In this document: piece by piece, positions 2,539-32,867 of the stretch | Numbering within the stretch: the stretch's first letter is position 1 | Layout of the letters: each line of letters starts with the position of its first letter | Source: Candidatus Iainarchaeum sp. | GTDB taxonomy: Archaea; Iainarchaeota; Iainarchaeia; Iainarchaeales; VGJJ01 | Assembly (NCBI GenBank): GCA_016198125.1 | Contig: JACQJG010000013.1 | Location: 1 to 62,618, forward strand | DNA length: 62,618 nucleotides | Reading direction: 5' to 3' | Position numbers and translations under genes: made by a program | The notes under the pieces: model-generated | The model's database searches: none | Told to the model about the DNA's origin: nothing | The model's input: the letters and a program-made list of their open reading frames with translations, nothing else

Positions 2539-2684
2539 TGGACTCAGCGGGATTTGAACCCGCGGCCCCTCCGACGCTTGAAGCTTTTTTTTCGGGTTTT
2601 CTTTTTCCCGAGGCTTTTTCCTTTTTTTAAAAGAAAAAGGCTCTTTTGCAAACGGAGTGCTCTACCAGGCTGAGCTATGAGCCC
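2539..2684 (-). tRNA. tRNA-Ala(TGC) with a ~72-nt intron in the anticodon loop (intron ~2575-2646)
   Basis: Reverse complement reads GGGCTCA TA GCTC AGCCTGGTA GAGC A CTCCG TTTGCA [intron] (T)CGGAG GGGCC GCGGG TTCAAAT CCCGC TGAGTCC A. It has the G3:U70 Ala identity pair and sits in the 16S-23S spacer, as is typical for archaea. Confidence 0.85.
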
Positions 2685-6446: not shown

Positions 6447-7744
6447 TATTTCCTGCTCTTTTTTATCTGGTTCAGAATACTGTCCAATTCTCCTATGGTG
6501 CGTACGGCCAATCCAAGGGGCAATTCATACTCTTTGGGGTTGTGCCACTGGTCATACATCCACCGGCGCTGGAAATAGTTATCCTTAACGGTTGAGTCTT
6601 GGGGTAAAAGATGCGGGGCAAGCGCTTTTCCGGTTTCCTCAAGTTGGGCGTTGATTGTTTTCTCCAACGGGCCTGTTCGCGCCAGCAATGCCTTTTTTTG
6701 CTCCGGAGTCGCGTATTTTAACGCATACTTTGCGCGTTCAATTCGTCTCTTGCGCTGCAGCAAGGCGGCCAGCCTGTTTGTCAAACGGGTTTGCTCTGCG
6801 TTGGATTTGGGGGCCATGATGCGCAAGGGCAGCAGGGGAAACACTTTGAATTCAGATACCAGTGGAAGGTGCGGAAAATCCTCCATGGCTTCGGCAAGTT
6901 TTCCGAACTCTTTCAAGTAGGCTTCGCTTAGCACGTAATTAACCATGTCCGGCCCGGACGCATGGAATACCTGTTGGGACTTCCTCTTTCCATATGCTTC
7001 CAGAACAACGCTCAGCAAGGTAACTGCTTTTACGCTGACCAATAAACCAATGTCTTCATTGGGACGTTTTCCAGTGGATACAATTTTGGCCAGTTCACGG
7101 TTGGCTTTGAGCGCCTGCATCACCCCATCCGATTTTTTGACCCGAATTCCCGTGCCATAAACCAGTTCGTCTTCATTTTCTTTGGCCAGCCTGTGAATAT
7201 TTCCCTCCCTGTCCACATACCGGTCAAATATTTCCCAATGGCCTTTTTGTATGAGATGATCTAAAACGCTTTTGACTCTTCTTTCTTTTTCAGCAAGGTA
7301 CTGGCTGAAAGTGTACACGCGTGCCCCGCGCGCGATGCGCTGCATAATGCGGACATGCAGGGTTGCAAGATTCTCTGGAATTTGTTTCACGCTTACTCCC
7401 AGAAATTCAGCCGCGGCTTTTCGCTGGTCGCCTGAAAGAAACATGAAGGGAGTGAGCCTTTCAGAATTTTCAAAAAAAGAAACATCCTTTCCATTGAAAA
7501 TAATGCGCCCCGGATGGTAGTTCTTGTCTGCCGCAGGCGAAGTCCGGTCATAGAGCTGCAAGGTGATTCCAGTGGTATGCAACCGGCCTCCCTTGGAAGC
7601 AATCCTTCCCAGCGTGCCAGCAATGTTGTACACGGCGAGATTTCCTATGTGCGCTGAACGGAAAACCCTTCCATGAGAGCGCCTGCTCAATTCCCGGGGA
7701 GTGGGATTGGCCTTGCTCACGCGAATGATTTTTTTTCCATTCAT
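6446..7744 (-). CDS. Conserved-looking hypothetical protein (432 aa), family not recognised
   Basis: Long uninterrupted ORF, translationally coupled on both sides: TGA-ATG junction with the M20 gene and TAATG with the ACT gene. Confidence 0.6.
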   Translation of the reverse strand: MNGKKIIRVSKANPTPRELSRRSHGRVFRSAHIGNLAVYNIAGTLGRIASKGGRLHTTGITLQLYDRTSPAADKNYHPGRIIFNGKDVSFFENSERLTPFMFLSGDQRKAAAEFLGVSVKQIPENLATLHVRIMQRIARGARVYTFSQYLAEKERRVKSVLDHLIQKGHWEIFDRYVDREGNIHRLAKENEDELVYGTGIRVKKSDGVMQALKANRELAKIVSTGKRPNEDIGLLVSVKAVTLLSVVLEAYGKRKSQQVFHASGPDMVNYVLSEAYLKEFGKLAEAMEDFPHLPLVSEFKVFPLLPLRIMAPKSNAEQTRLTNRLAALLQRKRRIERAKYALKYATPEQKKALLARTGPLEKTINAQLEETGKALAPHLLPQDSTVKDNYFQRRWMYDQWHNPKEYELPLGLAVRTIGELDSILNQIKKSRK

Positions 7745-13413: not shown

Positions 13414-14268
13414 CTACGGCGCTAATACTTCACGCAACACGCGGTTCACAAAGTCCATGGGCCCGTCACCAGAGATAAGAGCATCATAACGCTCCTTATA
13501 CAACAAAAGGTTAACATTATTTCTTTCATTCAAGAAACCAATTTTCAGGACTGTTTTATGCGGCAGGCCTTCTACCATATCAATGTCTTCCAAGGAATCC
13601 CCTAACAGCAAGACATTGGGCCGGTTCAAAACCTCCTTTTCATAAGGGGTTCCCTTCACGTGGCCTTCATTCTTGCTAAGCGTGTGAATAATATGAGAAG
13701 CATTCTTGTATCCTAGCACGCGGCCTTGCGCATCCAATTCATAAAAATTGGCTAACACGTGAACGTTGGAAGTCAAGCATTTTTTTAAGGTCAGAAAGCG
13801 CGTAATCATGTCCCCAGAAGCCGCAGAAAAAACAAGCACGGGAATGTTATGCGTCTCTAGAATCTTAAAAAAGTCAATAACCCCTTCACGCAGAGGGATC
13901 AACTCTTTTTCAAGAATGTCCTCCCAAATGCCCATGTTCATTCCATACTTGTGCAAAACCTGAATATGCACACTCCACCATTCATTCATTTTTTTCGAGC
14001 GCTCAGCCAGTGAAAGACTCTGATTCTCTTCAAACGGATGATAGTAGTCAAACAACCGCTTGTATTCTCTGGCATATTCTGGCCCCAAGTAATTCCCTTC
14101 CATGACTAATTGAATGGCTCCTGGAAGTTTCTTGGCATTCACAAACGCTTTGGTGAGCGTGCTGTCAAAGTCTGCCACTACGTGCAATGCACGAGCCCCC
14201 CCTGCAACCAATGCGCGCTTTTTTTCTTCGAATGCACGCGGAGTGTACGGAACCCAGTTATTTGACAT
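13414..14268 (-). CDS. Pyrimidine 5'-nucleotidase, eukaryote-type (UMPH-1 / NT5C3 family HAD)
   Basis: Motif I is VVADFDSTLTK. IPVLVFSAASGDMI matches PVFIFSAGIGD of NT5C3, and LLLGDSLEDIDMVEG matches ILLGDSQGDLRMADG. Confidence 0.75.
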   Translation of the reverse strand: MSNNWVPYTPRAFEEKKRALVAGGARALHVVADFDSTLTKAFVNAKKLPGAIQLVMEGNYLGPEYAREYKRLFDYYHPFEENQSLSLAERSKKMNEWWSVHIQVLHKYGMNMGIWEDILEKELIPLREGVIDFFKILETHNIPVLVFSAASGDMITRFLTLKKCLTSNVHVLANFYELDAQGRVLGYKNASHIIHTLSKNEGHVKGTPYEKEVLNRPNVLLLGDSLEDIDMVEGLPHKTVLKIGFLNERNNVNLLLYKERYDALISGDGPMDFVNRVLREVLAP

Positions 14269-14494: not shown

Positions 14495-15064
14495 ATGACA
14501 AAGAGAAATAAAAAGGAGTTTTCATCCGAACCACATATAGAACTGCTCATCGCATTGAAAGCCCGTTTTGAGAAAAACATGAACCGCCATAAAGGCCTTG
14601 AATGGGCTAAAGTACAAGCAAAGGTGGAGGCTAATACTGAAAAACGGTGGTCGCTCAATGAAATGGAACGAACGGGCGGCGAACCCGACGTGGTTGGCCA
14701 CGATAAAAAGACGGGTGAATACATTTTTTATGATTGTTCAGCGGAAAGTCCTAAAGGCCGCAGAAGTCTTTGTTACGACCGTAAAGCACTGGAAGAAAGG
14801 AAAGAATTCAAACCCAAAGACAGCGCTGTTGATATGGCAGCCGCCATGGGCATTGAGCTTTTAACGGAAGAACAATATCGAGAGTTGCAGAAGCTGGGAG
14901 CGTTCGATACGAAAACGTCGAGCTGGGTGAAAACCCCTTCCAATATTAGAAAACGCGGCGGCGCCCTCTTTTGTGACCGCCGCTACGACACCGTCTTTGT
15001 GTACCACAACGGCGCAGAATCCTACTATGCCGCTAGGGCATTCCGCGGCGCGCTAAGGGTTTAA
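14495..15064 (+). CDS. DUF4256-like protein
   Basis: RFEKNMNRHKGLEWAKVQAKVEAN...WSLNEMERTGGEPDVV matches my recollection of the mostly bacterial DUF4256 family. The surrounding DNA is AT-rich. Confidence 0.5.
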   Translation: MTKRNKKEFSSEPHIELLIALKARFEKNMNRHKGLEWAKVQAKVEANTEKRWSLNEMERTGGEPDVVGHDKKTGEYIFYDCSAESPKGRRSLCYDRKALEERKEFKPKDSAVDMAAAMGIELLTEEQYRELQKLGAFDTKTSSWVKTPSNIRKRGGALFCDRRYDTVFVYHNGAESYYAARAFRGALRV

Positions 15065-15262: not shown

Positions 15263-16078
15263 TTATTTTGTGAGTTGAATGAGTGCCTGGGGGTTATTAA
15301 TGTCTCGCTTGTTTGGAAAGCCAAAATAGCGTGTTTTCACACGATATCCCATTCTTTCACATAATTTTGTCCACTCCTCGGTTGTTCGGTACGAGTAAGG
15401 CATTGGAATTTTAGCGCGGCCTGAAAGAACCTTATTGGCAACCCAATCGAGCATGGACATTACTTTCTGTCTCTCCCTTGGTTTTAGTCTCATAAATTTT
15501 GCCCATGTTCTGGCACCCTTTAAAGGCCTCTTTTTTGTCGAATAGGAGTCTTCGAGAATAATTACCTTTCCTTCATTGGGAAGGGCATCATATATTCCTT
15601 GCAAGTAACTCTTTTGATTGATCTTGGGCATATGGTGCAAACTCCAAGTTAGTGTAACTACATCAGGATGAAAGCTTTTCAGAATATTCTCAAGGGAATT
15701 TGGATTTATTTGTATGAATTCTGTTTTTGCATTTGAAAACAACTTCCATTCGGGGTACTGAGTTACATCGACTCCAATGATTTTTTTGAATCGATTATAT
15801 TTGGATAAGCGATAAGGTAATGCGCCTGTTCCACACCCAACATCTATTATCAGTTTAGCTGACGGAATATGGGGAATAAACTCGTTTTCAAGGAAACTTG
15901 GAGCGACCTTCTGTCGAAAACCAATCACATATTTTTTAGTAATTTCATTGAAGTGTTTATTTCTGAATTTTTTAATTTGGTCTTTTTCTAATGCTTTTAT
16001 TAGGTCTTTCCTAAAAACTTTTGAGAAACCAATCGAATGAAGACTTGCATTTACATCTTCAAAAATATATTTTCTCAA
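15263..16078 (-). CDS. Class I SAM-dependent methyltransferase
   Basis: Motif I is IIDVGCGTGALPYRL, followed by GVDV and VILEDSY. The gene is AT-rich. Confidence 0.75.
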   Translation of the reverse strand: MRKYIFEDVNASLHSIGFSKVFRKDLIKALEKDQIKKFRNKHFNEITKKYVIGFRQKVAPSFLENEFIPHIPSAKLIIDVGCGTGALPYRLSKYNRFKKIIGVDVTQYPEWKLFSNAKTEFIQINPNSLENILKSFHPDVVTLTWSLHHMPKINQKSYLQGIYDALPNEGKVIILEDSYSTKKRPLKGARTWAKFMRLKPRERQKVMSMLDWVANKVLSGRAKIPMPYSYRTTEEWTKLCERMGYRVKTRYFGFPNKRDINNPQALIQLTK

Positions 16079-16217
16079 CTATTCATTTGCCAAAATGGAG
16101 CGAATTTTAATGTCAAAGTTCAAGGAATGGTCAAAACGTTTTGTTGCCATTGATGAGGCCACCCAATCATTGTTTTTGTTACATTAGTGAAAACCTTTTC
16201 GACTTTTTGATTAAACC

Positions 16218-16233
16218 AGTGCCCCGAGCGGGA
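16218..16233 (-). repeat. Direct repeat of the tRNA-Glu 3' end (att-like, distal copy)
   Basis: agtgccccgagcggga is identical to 18455-18470, which covers the last 14 nt of tRNA-Glu plus 2 flanking nt. Confidence 0.85.
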
Positions 16234-16278: not shown

Positions 16279-16689
16279 CTATCTCTCTTTGCTGATTATT
16301 TCTTTGGTTGTCAATACTTTTACTGCGGATTGTTCCTGAAGGGCTTTATCATTGGACCATAGTGGGCAGTTCAAATGAAGAGCTAACGCAATATACGCGA
16401 TGTCCTTTTCATCAGGGGTAACTTCTATTGCTCTTTTCTTCTGACTTTTGAAATCCTCGAATGGAATAAGCGTAATGCCTGCCGCTTGAACAAGTTCATC
16501 AACCAATTCGTTCAACTCCTCCTCGCTCAACTTGGTTTTCTTCGTCAATTCGGGAATCTTTTCCTGAAATTCTTTCAGGGTGTATTCGGGTGCATAAAAA
16601 TCGTGTCCTGAAAAGAGTAGAATGGAACGAGTGGTGCCGTCCCTTATGAGCGCGGCAAACAAGATGTTAGCGTCAACAACTAGAATCAT
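16279..16689 (-). CDS. vapC: PIN-domain ribonuclease toxin (VapC-like)
   Basis: MILVVDANILFAA provides the first acidic residue. Later acidic positions are in TPDEKDIAYIALA and SNDK. It lies 6 nt downstream of the antitoxin gene. Confidence 0.8.
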   Translation of the reverse strand: MILVVDANILFAALIRDGTTRSILLFSGHDFYAPEYTLKEFQEKIPELTKKTKLSEEELNELVDELVQAAGITLIPFEDFKSQKKRAIEVTPDEKDIAYIALALHLNCPLWSNDKALQEQSAVKVLTTKEIISKER

Positions 16690-16695
16690 GGGGAA

Positions 16696-16920
16696 TCATC
16701 TTTCCATGAATCGTTTGGACACATTACTCTTTATCTTCCCACCTAAGGAAATGGCATCGGCTTCCGTCAATTCACTTTTGGAAAGCAACTTATCCATCTT
16801 TTCCATCAGACGAATCCGCTCCAAAATAGCCTTCCGCGCCACCGCGCTCCAATTCATCTCTGGAAACTGATGCATTTTGGCTTTCATCTCATCCGAAACC
16901 GAAATCGTAACCGTAGACAT
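16696..16920 (-). CDS. vapB: VapB-type antitoxin (archaeal RHH-like)
   Basis: MSTVTISVSDEMKAKMHQFPEMNWSAVARKAILERI... is a typical archaeal PIN-partner antitoxin. An SD GGAGGT lies 8 nt upstream. Confidence 0.7.
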   Translation of the reverse strand: MSTVTISVSDEMKAKMHQFPEMNWSAVARKAILERIRLMEKMDKLLSKSELTEADAISLGGKIKSNVSKRFMER

Positions 16921-17037: not shown

Positions 17038-17175
17038 ATGCCGGGATACCCAGCAGCCATCCTCACGGTTGGTATCATTATCCTTTCAGCAGTCGCGTTG
17101 ATTTATGGTGTCCTAAAAGATCCTCTTTTCTCTGGAATATGTTTGATTGCCGGATTCATAGTGGGGCTACTTTGA
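17038..17175 (+). CDS. Possible 45-aa two-TM hydrophobic peptide
   Basis: MPGYPAAILTVGIIILSAVALIYGVLKDPLFSGICLIAGFIVGLL is preceded by GGAGAGG 3 nt before the ATG. It is convergent with the TIR gene and overlaps its end by 9 nt. It is too short for strong support. Confidence 0.3.
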   Translation: MPGYPAAILTVGIIILSAVALIYGVLKDPLFSGICLIAGFIVGLL

Positions 17176-18408
17176 TTCGTTTAGCTGGACCAAAAATCCA
17201 GAAATGAGCGATTGCATATCCAAGACAACCCATTTCGTGATAATATTCTTGGATATATTTTGATTATAAGTTCGAATTTTATGAAGCAATGCGATATAAT
17301 CCTTCATTAGATTCTTTTTCCTCAGAAAGGATTCCAAAATTTCACCCTTCCTTTCTAACAAGTCATGAGCAATTGGTCGAATTTCATCAAGGTTATTATG
17401 ACTGAAGGAAATCGCGTTGGCTTGCGCTTCATGGCTAAGGCCTTCCAGTAACTGCTTGAAATCGACAAGATTTTCGTTTTCATCAGCCTCTTGGACGGGT
17501 GAAAAAAGAGGCGAAGGTAGGGCGACTTCGGTGAATTCAAATTGCATTCCTAGAGCTCGATTTATTTTTTCAGAAACAATCTTGTGAAAATTTGACTCAT
17601 TGATATCCGTAGCTTGTAATTCGAACAACATCCCGCTCGGCCTCTTTCCTTCAAAACAAAAATGAGTTATTTCTGGAATCCCTGCCTTTCGAAGTTGTCC
17701 ATGAGCGAATCCAACTTCTTGATTTCCATATGTAGAACGATGAAAATCACCCGTTACAATAACGAAAACATGAGTGCTCTCTTCAAGTTTCTCAGTTATC
17801 TGAGGATTCCATGGTTTATCATCAACAATGTCCTCGTGGGCGACAAATCCAACAATATTCACTTGTGCCAAATACTCTTTGAGGACTTTGGCAATATGTT
17901 TGTCATTGTGGTGATGACTGATAAATACAAATGGTAGGCGGGCAGTCGCAGTCCCAGTGAACTGGTCAAAAATGTCCGATTTCGTTTGAGTTAGTGCCTC
18001 GAGAGACATTATCCTTTCACTTTCTTGAATATCTATTGTTAGTTTTTGACTTGGGGATTTGGCCCGTAATTCAACCAGGTCATCATGGTAAACCTTCAAG
18101 GCACTTTTCACGACTTCTTTATGTTCGCTGACAGTATCGGAGTCCAAAATAGTTGTTTTATCGCTCCAATCTTTGGCGTCTTCCATTGCTTTCTCAATTT
18201 TTGATCGAACTTCTTTCCAATGGGCGGCGATATGAGCCCTTGTTTCGGGGGAGGCATTGGTCAAACGTGAACGAGTAATCTCGGCAAATTTGATTCTGGC
18301 AAATTTCAACGCTTCGAGAATTGTCGAAACGCTTTCTTCGTGAAACCCAACATAGTTTATGTTTGGCATAATATCGCCCGCTTCCATCCGTTTTTTAACC
18401 GCCGTCAT
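17167..18408 (-). CDS. TIR-domain protein with helical N- and C-terminal domains
   Basis: Residues ~158-275 read FVFISHHHNDKHIAKVLKEYLAQVNIVGFVAHEDIVDDKPWNPQITEKLEESTHVFVIVTGDFHRSTYGNQEVGFAHG. This matches the TIR_2 pattern (FISHxxxD ... W...I...l..s...vvl.S.....S.w...E...A), with the conserved Glu at E231. The start could instead be Met8 or Met14. Confidence 0.7.
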   Translation of the reverse strand: MTAVKKRMEAGDIMPNINYVGFHEESVSTILEALKFARIKFAEITRSRLTNASPETRAHIAAHWKEVRSKIEKAMEDAKDWSDKTTILDSDTVSEHKEVVKSALKVYHDDLVELRAKSPSQKLTIDIQESERIMSLEALTQTKSDIFDQFTGTATARLPFVFISHHHNDKHIAKVLKEYLAQVNIVGFVAHEDIVDDKPWNPQITEKLEESTHVFVIVTGDFHRSTYGNQEVGFAHGQLRKAGIPEITHFCFEGKRPSGMLFELQATDINESNFHKIVSEKINRALGMQFEFTEVALPSPLFSPVQEADENENLVDFKQLLEGLSHEAQANAISFSHNNLDEIRPIAHDLLERKGEILESFLRKKNLMKDYIALLHKIRTYNQNISKNIITKWVVLDMQSLISGFLVQLNESK

Positions 18409-18456
18409 CCATATCCAGTCCGGATTCCCGGACGTTATTCGGACTGGAAGGTAAAG

Positions 18457-18531
18457 TGCCCCGAGCGGGATTTGAACCCGCGTTACCGGCTTGAAAGGCC
18501 GGTGTCCTTGGCCGGGCTGGACGATCGGGGC
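18457..18531 (-). tRNA. tRNA-Glu(TTC)
   Basis: Reverse complement reads GCCCCGA TC GTCC AGCCCGGCCAA GGAC A CCGGC CTTTCAA GCCGG TAAC GCGGG TTCAAAT CCCGC TCGGGGC A. CCA is not encoded. Confidence 0.9.
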
Positions 18532-30784: not shown

Positions 30785-30858
30785 GCCTCGGTAGCTCAGA
30801 CTGGTAGAGCGCCCGGCTGTTAACCGGTAGGTCGGCAGTTCAAATCTGCCCCGAGGCG
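30785..30858 (+). tRNA. tRNA-Asn(GTT)
   Basis: GCCTCGG TA GCTC AGACTGGTA GAGC G CCCGG CTGTTAA CCGGT AGGTC GGCAG TTCAAAT CTGCC CCGAGGC G. Confidence 0.9.
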
Positions 30859-30860
30859 CT

Positions 30861-32042: not shown

Positions 32043-32867
32043 GGTGATTGGGTAGAAAACGGAGCAATTTAACTACTTTTTTGGCTTTTTTACGTCTATG
32101 GTTGTGGGTTCGGCCATGTATGAACATGGTCGTAAGTGCTGGTTTTGCTGCTCGTATGGCTTGTCGCGTTTGCGCGACAAGCGAGTTTGGTGTAGCGCTT
32201 GTCGTTCGAAATATAGTTTGAGAAAATTGAAACGCGATCTAAAAGTCTTATACTATTTCTATTTGGAAGTGAGCGCACGAAAGTGCGCTCGTGAACTCGG
32301 ATTGAATTACAAAACAATTGCAAAAAGATACATGCAATATCGCGAAGCGATATTGCGTTACTCCGAGAATGATTTCAAAAAGTTGCACGGAAAAATAGAA
32401 GCAGATGAATCTTATTTTGGTGGTAAACGAAAAGGTAATCGTGGCAGGGGTGCTTTCAATAAACAAGCCGTATTCGGCATTCTTGAACGTAATGGGCGGG
32501 TTTACACGGCCGTCGTAGAAAATGTTTCAGCAAAAACATTGTTCAATCACATCAAAAAGAAAACGAGAAAGGGGAGCGTATTCTATACCGATTGTTTCAA
32601 ATCCTATAAAGATTTGAAGCAATACGGAAAACACAATCGGGTAAAACACTCAAAAACGTTCGGAAAAGGACACAATCACATCAACGGAATAGAAGGATTC
32701 TGGTCATTCGCAAAAGAACGATTCCACAAATACCACGGAATAAACAAACAGAATTACCCGCTTTACATCAAAGAAATGGAATTCCGATTCAACAACAGAA
32801 AAGAAAATCTGTACGCCAGATTAATTGGCGTAATACGCCAATTTGCTCCGAAAAATACCTAATCACC
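32043..32867 (+). mobile_element. IS1595-family insertion sequence, complete, with an 8-bp target-site duplication
   Basis: Imperfect 25-bp terminal inverted repeats match 19/25: GGTGATTGGGTAGAAAACGGAGCAA at 32043-32067 versus the reverse complement of 32843-32867. Flanking direct repeats AAAACTTA lie at 32035-32042 and 32868-32875. The element is AT-rich compared with its flanks. Confidence 0.85.
32098..32862 (+). CDS. IS1595-family (ISXO2-like) DDE transposase
   Basis: It has an N-terminal Zn-ribbon (CWFC...CSAC). EADESYFGGKRKGNRGRGA..KQAVFGILERNGRVY, FYTDCFKSYKDL and INGIEGFWSFAKERF are the hallmark DDE_Tnp_IS1595 blocks. Confidence 0.88.
   Translation: MVVGSAMYEHGRKCWFCCSYGLSRLRDKRVWCSACRSKYSLRKLKRDLKVLYYFYLEVSARKCARELGLNYKTIAKRYMQYREAILRYSENDFKKLHGKIEADESYFGGKRKGNRGRGAFNKQAVFGILERNGRVYTAVVENVSAKTLFNHIKKKTRKGSVFYTDCFKSYKDLKQYGKHNRVKHSKTFGKGHNHINGIEGFWSFAKERFHKYHGINKQNYPLYIKEMEFRFNNRKENLYARLIGVIRQFAPKNT

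Follow-up and report, generated by a model that had tools for sequence, protein, structure and literature searches.

A TIR-protein gene beside a tRNA-Glu gene of a DPANN archaeon

The stretch of DNA analyzed here, 62,618 nt of contig JACQJG010000013.1 and called the window throughout, is a piece of archaeal chromosome: it carries archaeal 16S and 23S rRNA genes and a signal recognition particle RNA gene, and also encodes L40e, UbiA/DGGGPS, FtsZ, FEN1 and CTP synthase. The nearest named genomes are metagenome-assembled genomes (MAGs) of Candidatus Iainarchaeum (DPANN), with an identity of only 36-44% in the UbiA protein. On the minus strand, just past a tRNA-Glu gene, lies a gene for a protein with a central TIR domain between two helical regions, followed by a VapB-like gene and a PIN_2 gene, and a pair of short direct repeats encloses these three genes. 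Here, we describe the TIR protein, its relatives and its setting, and consider whether it may be a single-chain immune sensor-effector that cleaves nicotinamide adenine dinucleotide (NAD+).

An earlier note on this DNA placed the gene at 17167..18408. An open reading frame (ORF) of 413 aa is indeed present there on the minus strand, but its start is probably the conserved M14 at 18369, which gives a protein of 400 aa, because the ATG at 18408 precedes a TATA-like box conserved in L001, the contig of the closest homologue, and is not an ATG in L001, where the intermediate ATG of the ORF is out of frame. Residues are therefore numbered from M14, so that the glutamate called E231 in the 413-aa ORF becomes E218. 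Judging from archaeal promoter geometry, the gene probably has its own promoter and a leaderless transcript; scans for sigma-70 promoters and intrinsic terminators employ bacterial models and are uninformative for an archaeal window. The composition of the gene is atypical, with a G+C content at third codon positions (GC3) of 0.38 versus ~0.5 in host genes. The gene and the parts of its product are as follows, helices being those of an AlphaFold2 model with its predicted local distance difference test (pLDDT) scores.

17167..18369, minus strand: gene of the TIR protein (400 aa counted from M14; the ORF as annotated reaches 18408); start placed by comparison with L001 and by the position of the TATA-like box
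18391-18398, minus strand: TATA-like box TTAAAAAA, read from the sequence, 21 nt upstream of the M14 ATG and conserved in L001
17989..18369, minus strand: N-terminal four-helix domain, a putative sensor (aa 1-127; helices 11-38, 41-66, 78-104 and 108-121; pLDDT mostly 83-94)
17932..17988, minus strand: flexible linker (aa 128-146; low pLDDT), the least conserved segment, with 26% aa identity to the closest homologue, P0002
17545..17931, minus strand: TIR domain (aa 147-275; supported by TIR_2, Foldseek and the family profile); E218 codon at 17716-17718
17482..17544, minus strand: Pro-rich connector, probably disordered (aa 276-296; no secondary structure; low pLDDT around 290-294)
17170..17481, minus strand: C-terminal helical module (aa 297-400; helices 297-323, 336-351, 355-373 and 379-399; pLDDT 83-94)

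The TIR domain and its catalytic glutamate

The central region had been recognized as TIR from its sequence pattern, and profile and structure searches bear this out. In the 413-aa ORF, Pfam TIR_2 (PF13676) aligns with residues 161-270 (nt ~17599-17928) at E = 1.6e-12; its 48.4 bits exceed the gathering cut-off of 28 bits, and the match extends over profile positions 1-109 of 122. Both the strand A sequence FISHHHNDK and the sequence STYGNQEVGFA are present, and the weak matches to PADLOC and NCBIfam models are of TIR type only (TIR-TM, SAVED-TIR, ThsB, PDC-S66, spbK, ThcB4 and retron-TIR). In the AlphaFold2 model, strands and helices alternate over aa 147-275 as in the flavodoxin-like alpha/beta fold of TIR. 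When the whole-protein model was compared with the PDB by Foldseek, the best match was the TIR domain of SpbK from Bacillus subtilis in a cryo-electron microscopy filament structure (9phb_A; probability 1.0), followed by the TIR domains of MyD88, TRR-2, SARM1, AbTir, Cat1 and SPARTA; the probability was 1.0 for those of SpbK, MyD88, TRR-2, SARM1 and AbTir, at a target-normalized template modeling score of 0.6-0.74.

The family profile, when compared with PDB sequences, finds Cat1 (2e-7), an AbTir-like TIR (5e-6) and SpbK (1.7e-5) as well as SARM1 and plant TIRs. Every one of these matches runs through the TIR domain, and the NQE of the family falls on N191/E192 of SpbK. E218, which the earlier note had singled out as the glutamate that is catalytic in NADase TIRs, is thus aligned with the catalytic E192 of SpbK, and it is invariant in an alignment of 22 family sequences. 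The invariant core of this alignment comprises F149 in strand A, F175, A177 and H178 in strand B, W187 near the start of the helix following strand B, T206, S212, Q217-E218-G220 and Q252. The window protein belongs to the TIR superfamily and has catalytic features of the NADase type.

Architecture and relatives

The AlphaFold2 model was built on the 22-sequence alignment and reached a mean pLDDT of 81.4, compared with only 43 in a run on two sequences. It shows a helical domain, a linker, the TIR domain, a connector and a second helical module. The earlier note had found both helical regions to match nothing that it recognized. This holds for the C-terminal module but not for the N-terminal region, which turns out to belong to a family of ~270-aa proteins made of N-domain and TIR. 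A word-indexed search of 5.8 G proteins yielded a single full-length relative, P0002 (71% identity), and TIR-only matches; HMMER, run exhaustively on 1.84 G representatives, returned 1561 matches at E < 1e-3, in which the whole protein was covered by P0002 and P0007 only (P0007 with 395 aa and E = 2e-51) and the N-terminal helical region and TIR were matched jointly (query 18-287) by at least about twenty ~270-aa proteins. S89, L91 and Y94 of the N-domain are invariant in the 22 sequences and lie in a motif “RSALEIY”, which reads VKSALKVY in the window protein.

Neither an N-domain-only profile compared with the PDB nor a comparison with Pfam connects the N-domain to a known family. The C-terminal module likewise has no Pfam or PDB match, and it was found in just three proteins (P0001, P0002 and P0007) among the 1.84 G representatives. 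SIR2, SLOG, STING, NB-ARC and other partner domains are absent from the protein according to Pfam, NCBIfam and PADLOC, as had been stated before. The N-domain+TIR family is rare: 185,579 species-representative genomes hold one full-length member, in a Bathyarchaeia MAG, which is the sole named host of the family, and several of the other contexts look archaeal. A metagenome scan with the three full-length proteins gave no match, and viral contigs and a viral structure library returned just generic TIR or deoxyribosyltransferase-fold matches.

No fusion of the N-domain to an effector other than TIR was found, the sole extra match being a truncated family member. This protein (P0163, 163 aa; L076 4001-4492) ends after the first TIR strand, at ~1.8 kb from a gene for a 465-aa Phage_integrase protein, and its truncation is evidence that copies of the family decay.

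Several ideas on the origin of the flanking regions were considered and set aside. Duplication of the N-domain does not account for the C-terminal extension (hhalign probability 2.5%), and we do not claim that other TIR families (P0056, P0078 and others) have this extension too, as the alignment past TIR is unconvincing. A HEPN-like nature of the N-domain was rejected: matches below the threshold appear in one relative only (E ~0.01-0.05), the conserved motif is S-x-L-x-x-Y, with K taking the place of R in the window protein, and an Rx4-6H motif is lacking. When the two closest proteins were made into a profile, it found nothing in PDB sequences other than non-significant, apolipoprotein-like helical noise.

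Comparison with SpbK and other TIR systems

SpbK (YddK), which is carried by the mobile element ICEBs1 of Bacillus subtilis, is a single-protein TIR system of abortive infection (PMC12847820; PMC11984713). It consists of an N-terminal four-helix bundle (1-94), an 18-residue linker and a TIR domain (113-266); its N-domain docks on the portal protein YonE of phage SPbeta, and the TIR clustering that results turns on the NADase, which makes N1-cyclic ADP-ribose (N1-cADPR), a product with no known receptor (PMC12847820). The AlphaFold2 model of the window protein follows the same plan of a four-helix N-domain, a flexible linker of ~18-20 aa and TIR, and the two also share the single gene, the lack of a dedicated partner and the carriage by a mobile element. 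They differ in that the window protein has an extra C-terminal helical module of ~125 aa behind a Pro-rich connector, and in their hosts, a Firmicute for SpbK and a DPANN archaeon for the window. Against SpbK, the alignment of the family profile begins no earlier than profile position 111 (last helix, linker and TIR). Since no sequence homology between the N-domains was detected, the parallel there is an architectural one, and the protein, SpbK-like in its working as it may be, is not demonstrably a member of the SpbK family. The protein, probably an NAD-destroying immune protein, is thus built on the plan of SpbK with an additional tail module.

A similar, partial resemblance exists to PDC-S66, an uncharacterized PADLOC candidate for phage defense, which in the literature is an annotation label only. 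Its PADLOC profile is matched weakly and partially by the window protein (residues 54-232 on profile positions 44-223 of 282; E = 1e-5) and by 13 of the 22 family members (best E = 1.9e-11); it covers part of the N-domain together with TIR but does not include the C-terminal module. The architecture had been thought to differ from known types. This is correct for the C-terminal module, truly unmatched so far, but not for the plan of N-domain, linker and TIR, which mirrors SpbK and in part PDC-S66.

Cat1, the best PDB sequence match of the family profile, resembles the window protein through TIR and is a filament-forming NADase. Some family members adjoin Cas1, but these Cas1 genes stand alone, with no CRISPR array. 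Cat1 senses cyclic tetra-adenylate (cA4) through a CARF domain; a CARF domain was not detected in the window protein. To ThsB of Thoeris the window protein is related as a prokaryotic TIR of TIR_2/ThsB type, and ThsB profiles are the commonest PADLOC matches of the family, but ThsB proteins do not possess this N-terminal four-helix domain. No gene for a ThsA-type effector (SIR2-SLOG or Macro-TM) lies within 5 kb of the TIR gene in the window, and because ThsA is missing, the protein is not assigned to Thoeris.

A mosaic gene

The TIR gene of the window was compared codon by codon with that of L001. Values are given below as nucleotide identity, proportion of synonymous differences (pS) and ratio of nonsynonymous to synonymous rates (omega).

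Codons 1-127, N-domain: identity 0.53, pS 0.83, omega not computable (saturated)
Codons 128-146, linker: identity 0.40, pS 0.97, omega not computable (saturated)
Codons 147-275, TIR: identity 0.88, pS 0.47, omega 0.05
Codons 276-372, core of the C-terminal extension (C-core): identity 0.90, pS 0.29, omega 0.12
Codons 373-400, last helix: identity 0.60, pS 0.76, omega not computable (saturated)

The 5′ flank of the gene is 84% identical in the two contigs. Because synonymous sites are saturated in the N-domain, the linker and the last helix, the history of these segments differs from that of the core, which in a comparison of two alleles indicates module exchange by recombination and not just fast protein evolution. 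The C-core is not intrinsically hyper-conserved, because in the distant P0007 the C-terminal extension is only 0.23 identical, as against 0.22 for the N-domain and 0.47 for TIR. A variable recognition module joined to a catalytic core that is conserved is what one would expect of an immune receptor, and the shared fate of the two variable ends suggests that the last helix may cooperate with the N-domain. A diversity-generating retroelement was considered as the source of the N-domain divergence and rejected: no template repeat exists in the window, and the divergence covers ~440 nt and includes synonymous saturation.

The same comparison bears on whether the gene works as an enzyme at all. Many TIR domains are adaptors, and a non-enzymatic scaffold, or else a gene in decay, would be in keeping with the rarity of the N-domain+TIR family and with the member that is truncated after the first TIR strand. 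We regard this as very improbable, as the catalytic glutamate and the other core residues are invariant, purifying selection on TIR is strong (omega 0.05), the ORF is intact and the promoter-like region is conserved.

Neighboring genes and the question of a partner

The co-oriented neighbors of the TIR gene are a VapB-like gene and a PIN_2 gene, as the earlier note had described.

16696-16920, minus strand: VapB-like antitoxin gene, 74 aa (NCBIfam TA_anti_VapB_Sulfo, E = 4e-6, 27 bits; GGAGG upstream of the ATG)
16279-16689, minus strand: PIN_2 (VapC-like) toxin gene, 136 aa (Pfam PIN_2, E = 4e-24, full length; start 6 nt past the VapB stop)

The two genes have the layout of a VapBC type II system, with tight spacing and the antitoxin first; the family of the antitoxin is assigned tentatively, because the VapB model scores 27 bits against a cut-off of 60. 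Between the TIR and VapB genes is a gap of 246 nt, and GC3 is 0.38 in the TIR gene, 0.55 in the VapB gene and 0.46 in the PIN gene. From their arrangement in the sequence, TIR and VapBC are separate transcription units.

The gap contains a hydrophobic ORF of 45 aa (17038-17175, plus strand; MPGYPAAILTVGIIILSAVALIYGVLKDPLFSGICLIAGFIVGLL), which runs toward the TIR gene and overlaps the TIR stop by 9 nt. Two of its helices are hydrophobic, and GGAGAGG precedes its ATG by 5 nt. The ORF lies inside the cassette described below and may encode a small membrane protein.

Does the TIR protein act through a partner? The ORFs around the family were clustered in a census of 30 loci with ~119 kb of flanking DNA, 12 of which have Pfam lists of called genes, the remaining loci being covered by ORF clustering and the search for PIN and VapB. 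No ORF family was common to the neighborhoods in general. Relatives of the window PIN and VapB, sought with phmmer, were found near none of the other family members (0/29 loci), and SIR2, SLOG and Macro were absent from the Pfam lists of the 12 annotated loci and from our own scans. L001 diverges wholly from the window directly after the TIR stop codon, and its 3′ flank is unrelated. Thus, the TIR gene behaves as a single-gene system.

These observations bear on the two options that the earlier note had left standing, a self-contained sensor-effector and a signal producer whose downstream effector is the PIN RNase. The first fits best, as the gene forms a single-gene unit with no conserved partner in the 30 loci. 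For the second we found no support, because PIN and VapB are lacking at the other loci, a spacer and a Shine-Dalgarno sequence of its own set VapB apart from the TIR gene, GC3 differs and L001 diverges after the TIR stop; moreover, the PIN protein is a bare 136-aa PIN_2 protein with no ligand- or nucleotide-sensing domain. In a wider form of this alternative, the protein would, like ThsB, respond to infection by producing a messenger of the cADPR-isomer or histidine-ADP-ribose (His-ADPR) type that activates an effector elsewhere in the genome or the PIN RNase next door. PADLOC ThsB profiles are matched by 19 of the 22 family members (best E = 6e-13), the window protein has a weak match to Pfam ThsB_TIR, SpbK itself yields N1-cADPR (PMC12847820) and PIN and VapB are co-oriented in the same cassette. 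We nevertheless consider such a signal producer improbable, given that the 12 annotated loci list no ThsA-like SIR2, SLOG or Macro protein, that no neighbor is conserved across the 30 loci and that the PIN gene, which has no relative at the other 29, is transcribed apart from the TIR gene.

A repeat-bounded cassette at the 3′ end of tRNA-Glu

Two direct repeats, one of which overlaps the 3′ end of tRNA-Glu, enclose 2,221 nt, whose only contents are the TIR gene, the small ORF and the VapB-PIN pair.

18456-18531, minus strand: tRNA-Glu(UUC) (ARAGORN and Rfam, 66 bits), its 3′ end 86 nt upstream of the M14 ATG
18455-18470, minus strand: direct repeat copy 1, TCCCGCTCGGGGCACT, an exact 16-mer made of the last 14 nt of tRNA-Glu and 2 nt more
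16218-16233, minus strand: direct repeat copy 2, an exact 16-mer, 45 nt downstream of the PIN stop codon
18435-18447, minus strand: left terminal inverted repeat CCAGTCCGAATAA, set in by 7 nt from direct repeat 1 and conserved in L001
16244-16256, plus strand: right terminal inverted repeat CCAGTCCGCATAA, set in by 10 nt from direct repeat 2

The 16-mer is present exactly twice in the window, and none of 100 shuffles contained two matches; the sequence bordering copy 2 at 16217 reads ...GGTTTAATC. The 13-mer CCAGTCCGMATAA also occurs only twice in the window, the two copies being inverted to each other and each lying by a direct repeat. The inverted repeat can be written as CCAGTCCG(A/C)ATAA, extends by eye to 16/18 matches and gives the cassette the ends CCAGTCCGMATAAC; a third copy of CCAGTCCG forms a hairpin at the tRNA-proximal end. 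L001 opens on this 3′ end of the tRNA as well and shares the left end, with 84% identity over 104 nt.

In casposons, target-site duplications of 14-16 bp at tRNA 3′ ends flank the terminal inverted repeats (PMC5137440). The cassette resembles them in that its direct repeats measure 16 nt, that one of these overlaps a tRNA 3′ end beside the T-loop and that inverted repeats follow closely on the inner side, but the latter have a length of only 13-18 nt and stand 7-10 nt away from the direct repeats. The repeats also fit the core attachment (att) sites of tyrosine-recombinase elements at a tRNA 3′ end, so that the anatomy of the ends fits a casposon-type transposon and a tyrosine-recombinase att site alike. 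There is no recombinase, Cas1, PolB, integrase or transposase gene in the cassette, and tblastn found no Cas1 and no relative of the integrase-like protein of L084 in the 62-kb window. Since no integrase or transposase gene lies between the repeats, the cassette would be either mobilized in trans or a relic, and it is likely that the TIR and VapBC genes form a discrete mobile cassette of this non-autonomous or relic kind.

A search for the exact sequence of tRNA-Glu found it in none of 185,579 GTDB species genomes, the nearest of which share ~40% aa identity. Distant Iainarchaeum relatives keep the synteny of tRNA-Glu and UbiA with different cargo past the tRNA, and in the Iainarchaeum-like lineage the DNA 3′ of tRNA-Glu looks like a hot spot of variation. 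Partial tRNA copies past the cargo were found neither in the Iainarchaeum relatives nor in the family locus L055. Beyond tRNA-Glu, L004 (264-2875) has an AbiEii gene, a DUF6088 (AbiEi-like) gene and an IS3 transposase gene, and L003 (6747-9437) has an HNH endonuclease gene and unknown genes.

A second, 19-nt match to the T-arm of tRNA-Glu was dismissed as a repeat, being part of the tRNA of the rRNA operon, presumably tRNA-Ala. The latter is a 146-nt Rfam tRNA match between the 16S and 23S genes (2539-2684, minus strand) with no ARAGORN call; a match this long suggests that the tRNA contains an intron, its place within the operon points to tRNA-Ala, and its T-arm shares the 19 nt with tRNA-Glu.

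Just outside the cassette, at 15263-16078 (minus strand), is an S-adenosylmethionine-dependent methyltransferase gene with the lowest G+C content of the region (0.365; GC3 0.34). It matches the PADLOC mad2 (MADS) profile (7.8e-11) and may belong to an older, adjacent islet. Beside this low-G+C region are genes for a UMPH-1-type pyrimidine 5′-nucleotidase (13414-14268, minus strand; E = 9e-56), a mostly eukaryotic family, and for a DUF4256 protein (14495-15064, plus strand; E = 9e-94). A transposase gene of the IS1595 family (ISXO2-like; 32098-32862, plus strand) is unrelated to the cassette and lies ~1.2 kb from tRNA-Asn (30785-30859).

Mobile-element and defense genes around the family

N-domain+TIR genes travel as cargo of mobile elements elsewhere too. 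In L055 (4038-5822; also in L056), tRNA-Lys(UUU), a tyrosine recombinase gene and a TIR gene of the family follow one another in the same orientation; the recombinase has 244 aa and a zinc ribbon inserted in it, and it scores 29.6 bits with Phage_integrase (cut-off 27.1). This looks like a minimal tRNA-integrating element with TIR as its first cargo; no distal repeat was found within 7.2 kb. A related integrase-like gene occurs in L084 (26.6 bits, just below the cut-off of 27.1), the 465-aa integrase of L076 lies near a family member, a TrbC/type IV secretion system pilin adjoins P0007, and L073 has a Schlafen-like helicase together with MazG and a ParE-like pair near its family member. Cas1 or C-terminal remnants of Cas1 are found at four independent family loci, with no CRISPR arrays.

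Individual loci show how close this association can be. The gene for a 245-aa Cas1 overlaps the start of the family TIR gene in L057 (815-1552), and 50-aa C-terminal remnants of Cas1 abut the TIR gene in L076 (3845-3997) and L099 (1035-1187). In L101 (SMTZ1_10002996), a terminal inverted repeat of 31 nt with 94% complementarity (444-474 / 7595-7625) surrounds a 7.2-kb segment with a solo Cas1 (Pfam 1.8e-47), a weak match to a primase of the archaeo-eukaryotic type (AEP-like), unknown ORFs and an N-domain+TIR gene. No CRISPR array, PolB or obvious target-site duplication at the ends was detected in it. The segment is a candidate for an unusual casposon-like element that carries a TIR gene.

Carriage by mobile elements beside toxin-antitoxin modules, VapBC here and the ParE-like pair in L073, would also be in line with a selfish role, in which the protein is a stabilizing toxin with an addiction or exclusion function for the cassette; a housekeeping role in removing NAD caps from NAD-RNA (deNADding) can be placed in the same group. 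These roles seem quite improbable to us: no small, antitoxin-like cognate gene is conserved beside the TIR gene, immune receptors typically combine, as here, a conserved catalytic core with a hypervariable domain such as the N-domain, and defense-type genes are among the neighbors of the family.

A possible mechanism

The reading that we favor, at somewhat better than even confidence, is that the TIR protein is a single-chain immune sensor-effector of SpbK type: the N-domain would sense, TIR would cluster, E218 would cleave NAD+ and the cell would be arrested. An outline of the proposed process is as follows. In the resting cell, the TIR domains would be held apart or as an inactive dimer. The variable N-domain, perhaps jointly with the last C-terminal helix, which is just as variable, would then bind a multimeric protein of an invading virus or mobile element. 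Binding would cluster the TIR domains into head-to-tail assemblies, which would complete a composite active site, and NAD+ would be cleaved there in an E218-dependent manner to ADP-ribose (ADPR) and possibly also to a cADPR isomer. The resulting depletion of NAD+ would arrest the infected cell, that is, cause abortive infection. No dedicated partner would be needed for this, and the VapBC of the cassette would be an independent toxin-antitoxin pair.

Several points weigh against this scheme. The C-terminal module has no counterpart in SpbK, homology of the N-domain to that of SpbK is not detectable in sequence, and the match to the PADLOC spbK model is weak (E = 1.7e-3). The predicted template modeling score of the AlphaFold2 model (pTM 0.47) leaves the packing between the domains unresolved. 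The strongest PADLOC profile matches of the family are to ThsB models, and ThsB proteins are signal producers rather than stand-alone killers. No family member that might suggest a trigger was found on IMG/VR viral contigs, and we know of no virus of this host. Finally, for the whole family the NADase activity and the antiviral function are predicted ones.

Implications for DPANN archaea

To our knowledge, single-protein TIR NADase sensors have been mechanistically dissected only in bacteria (SpbK) and in eukaryotes, and little is known of antiviral immunity in DPANN archaea. The metabolism of these archaea is reduced, and depletion of NAD+ would be especially costly for them. New at this locus are the family of the N-domain, a putative sensor that is so far confined to uncultured archaea, the orphan module at the C-terminus and the cassette that lies between repeats next to a tRNA gene; no new principle of immunity is revealed. 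The cassette and the recurrent linkage of the family to solo Cas1 or small tyrosine integrases add a case of defense genes on minimal archaeal mobile elements. For experiments, the family-specific N-domain, the orphan C-terminal module and the sensor-swap mosaic provide handles, and this mosaic between two natural alleles points to the seat of specificity.

One can go further and imagine that TIR and VapBC form a non-autonomous cassette that targets the 3′ end of tRNA-Glu, either as a mini-casposon served by a solo Cas1 or as a tyrosine-integrase islet, and that it carries a three-module receptor, the N-domain and last helix of which are swapped between DPANN lineages as an exchangeable recognition surface while TIR and the C-core stay fixed. 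As a whole this picture is unlikely, but if true, it would mean a portable, re-targetable NADase immune receptor in ultra-small archaea. Apart from that picture, the locus suggests that the logic of a helical sensor, a linker and a TIR domain activated by clustering also operates in DPANN archaea.

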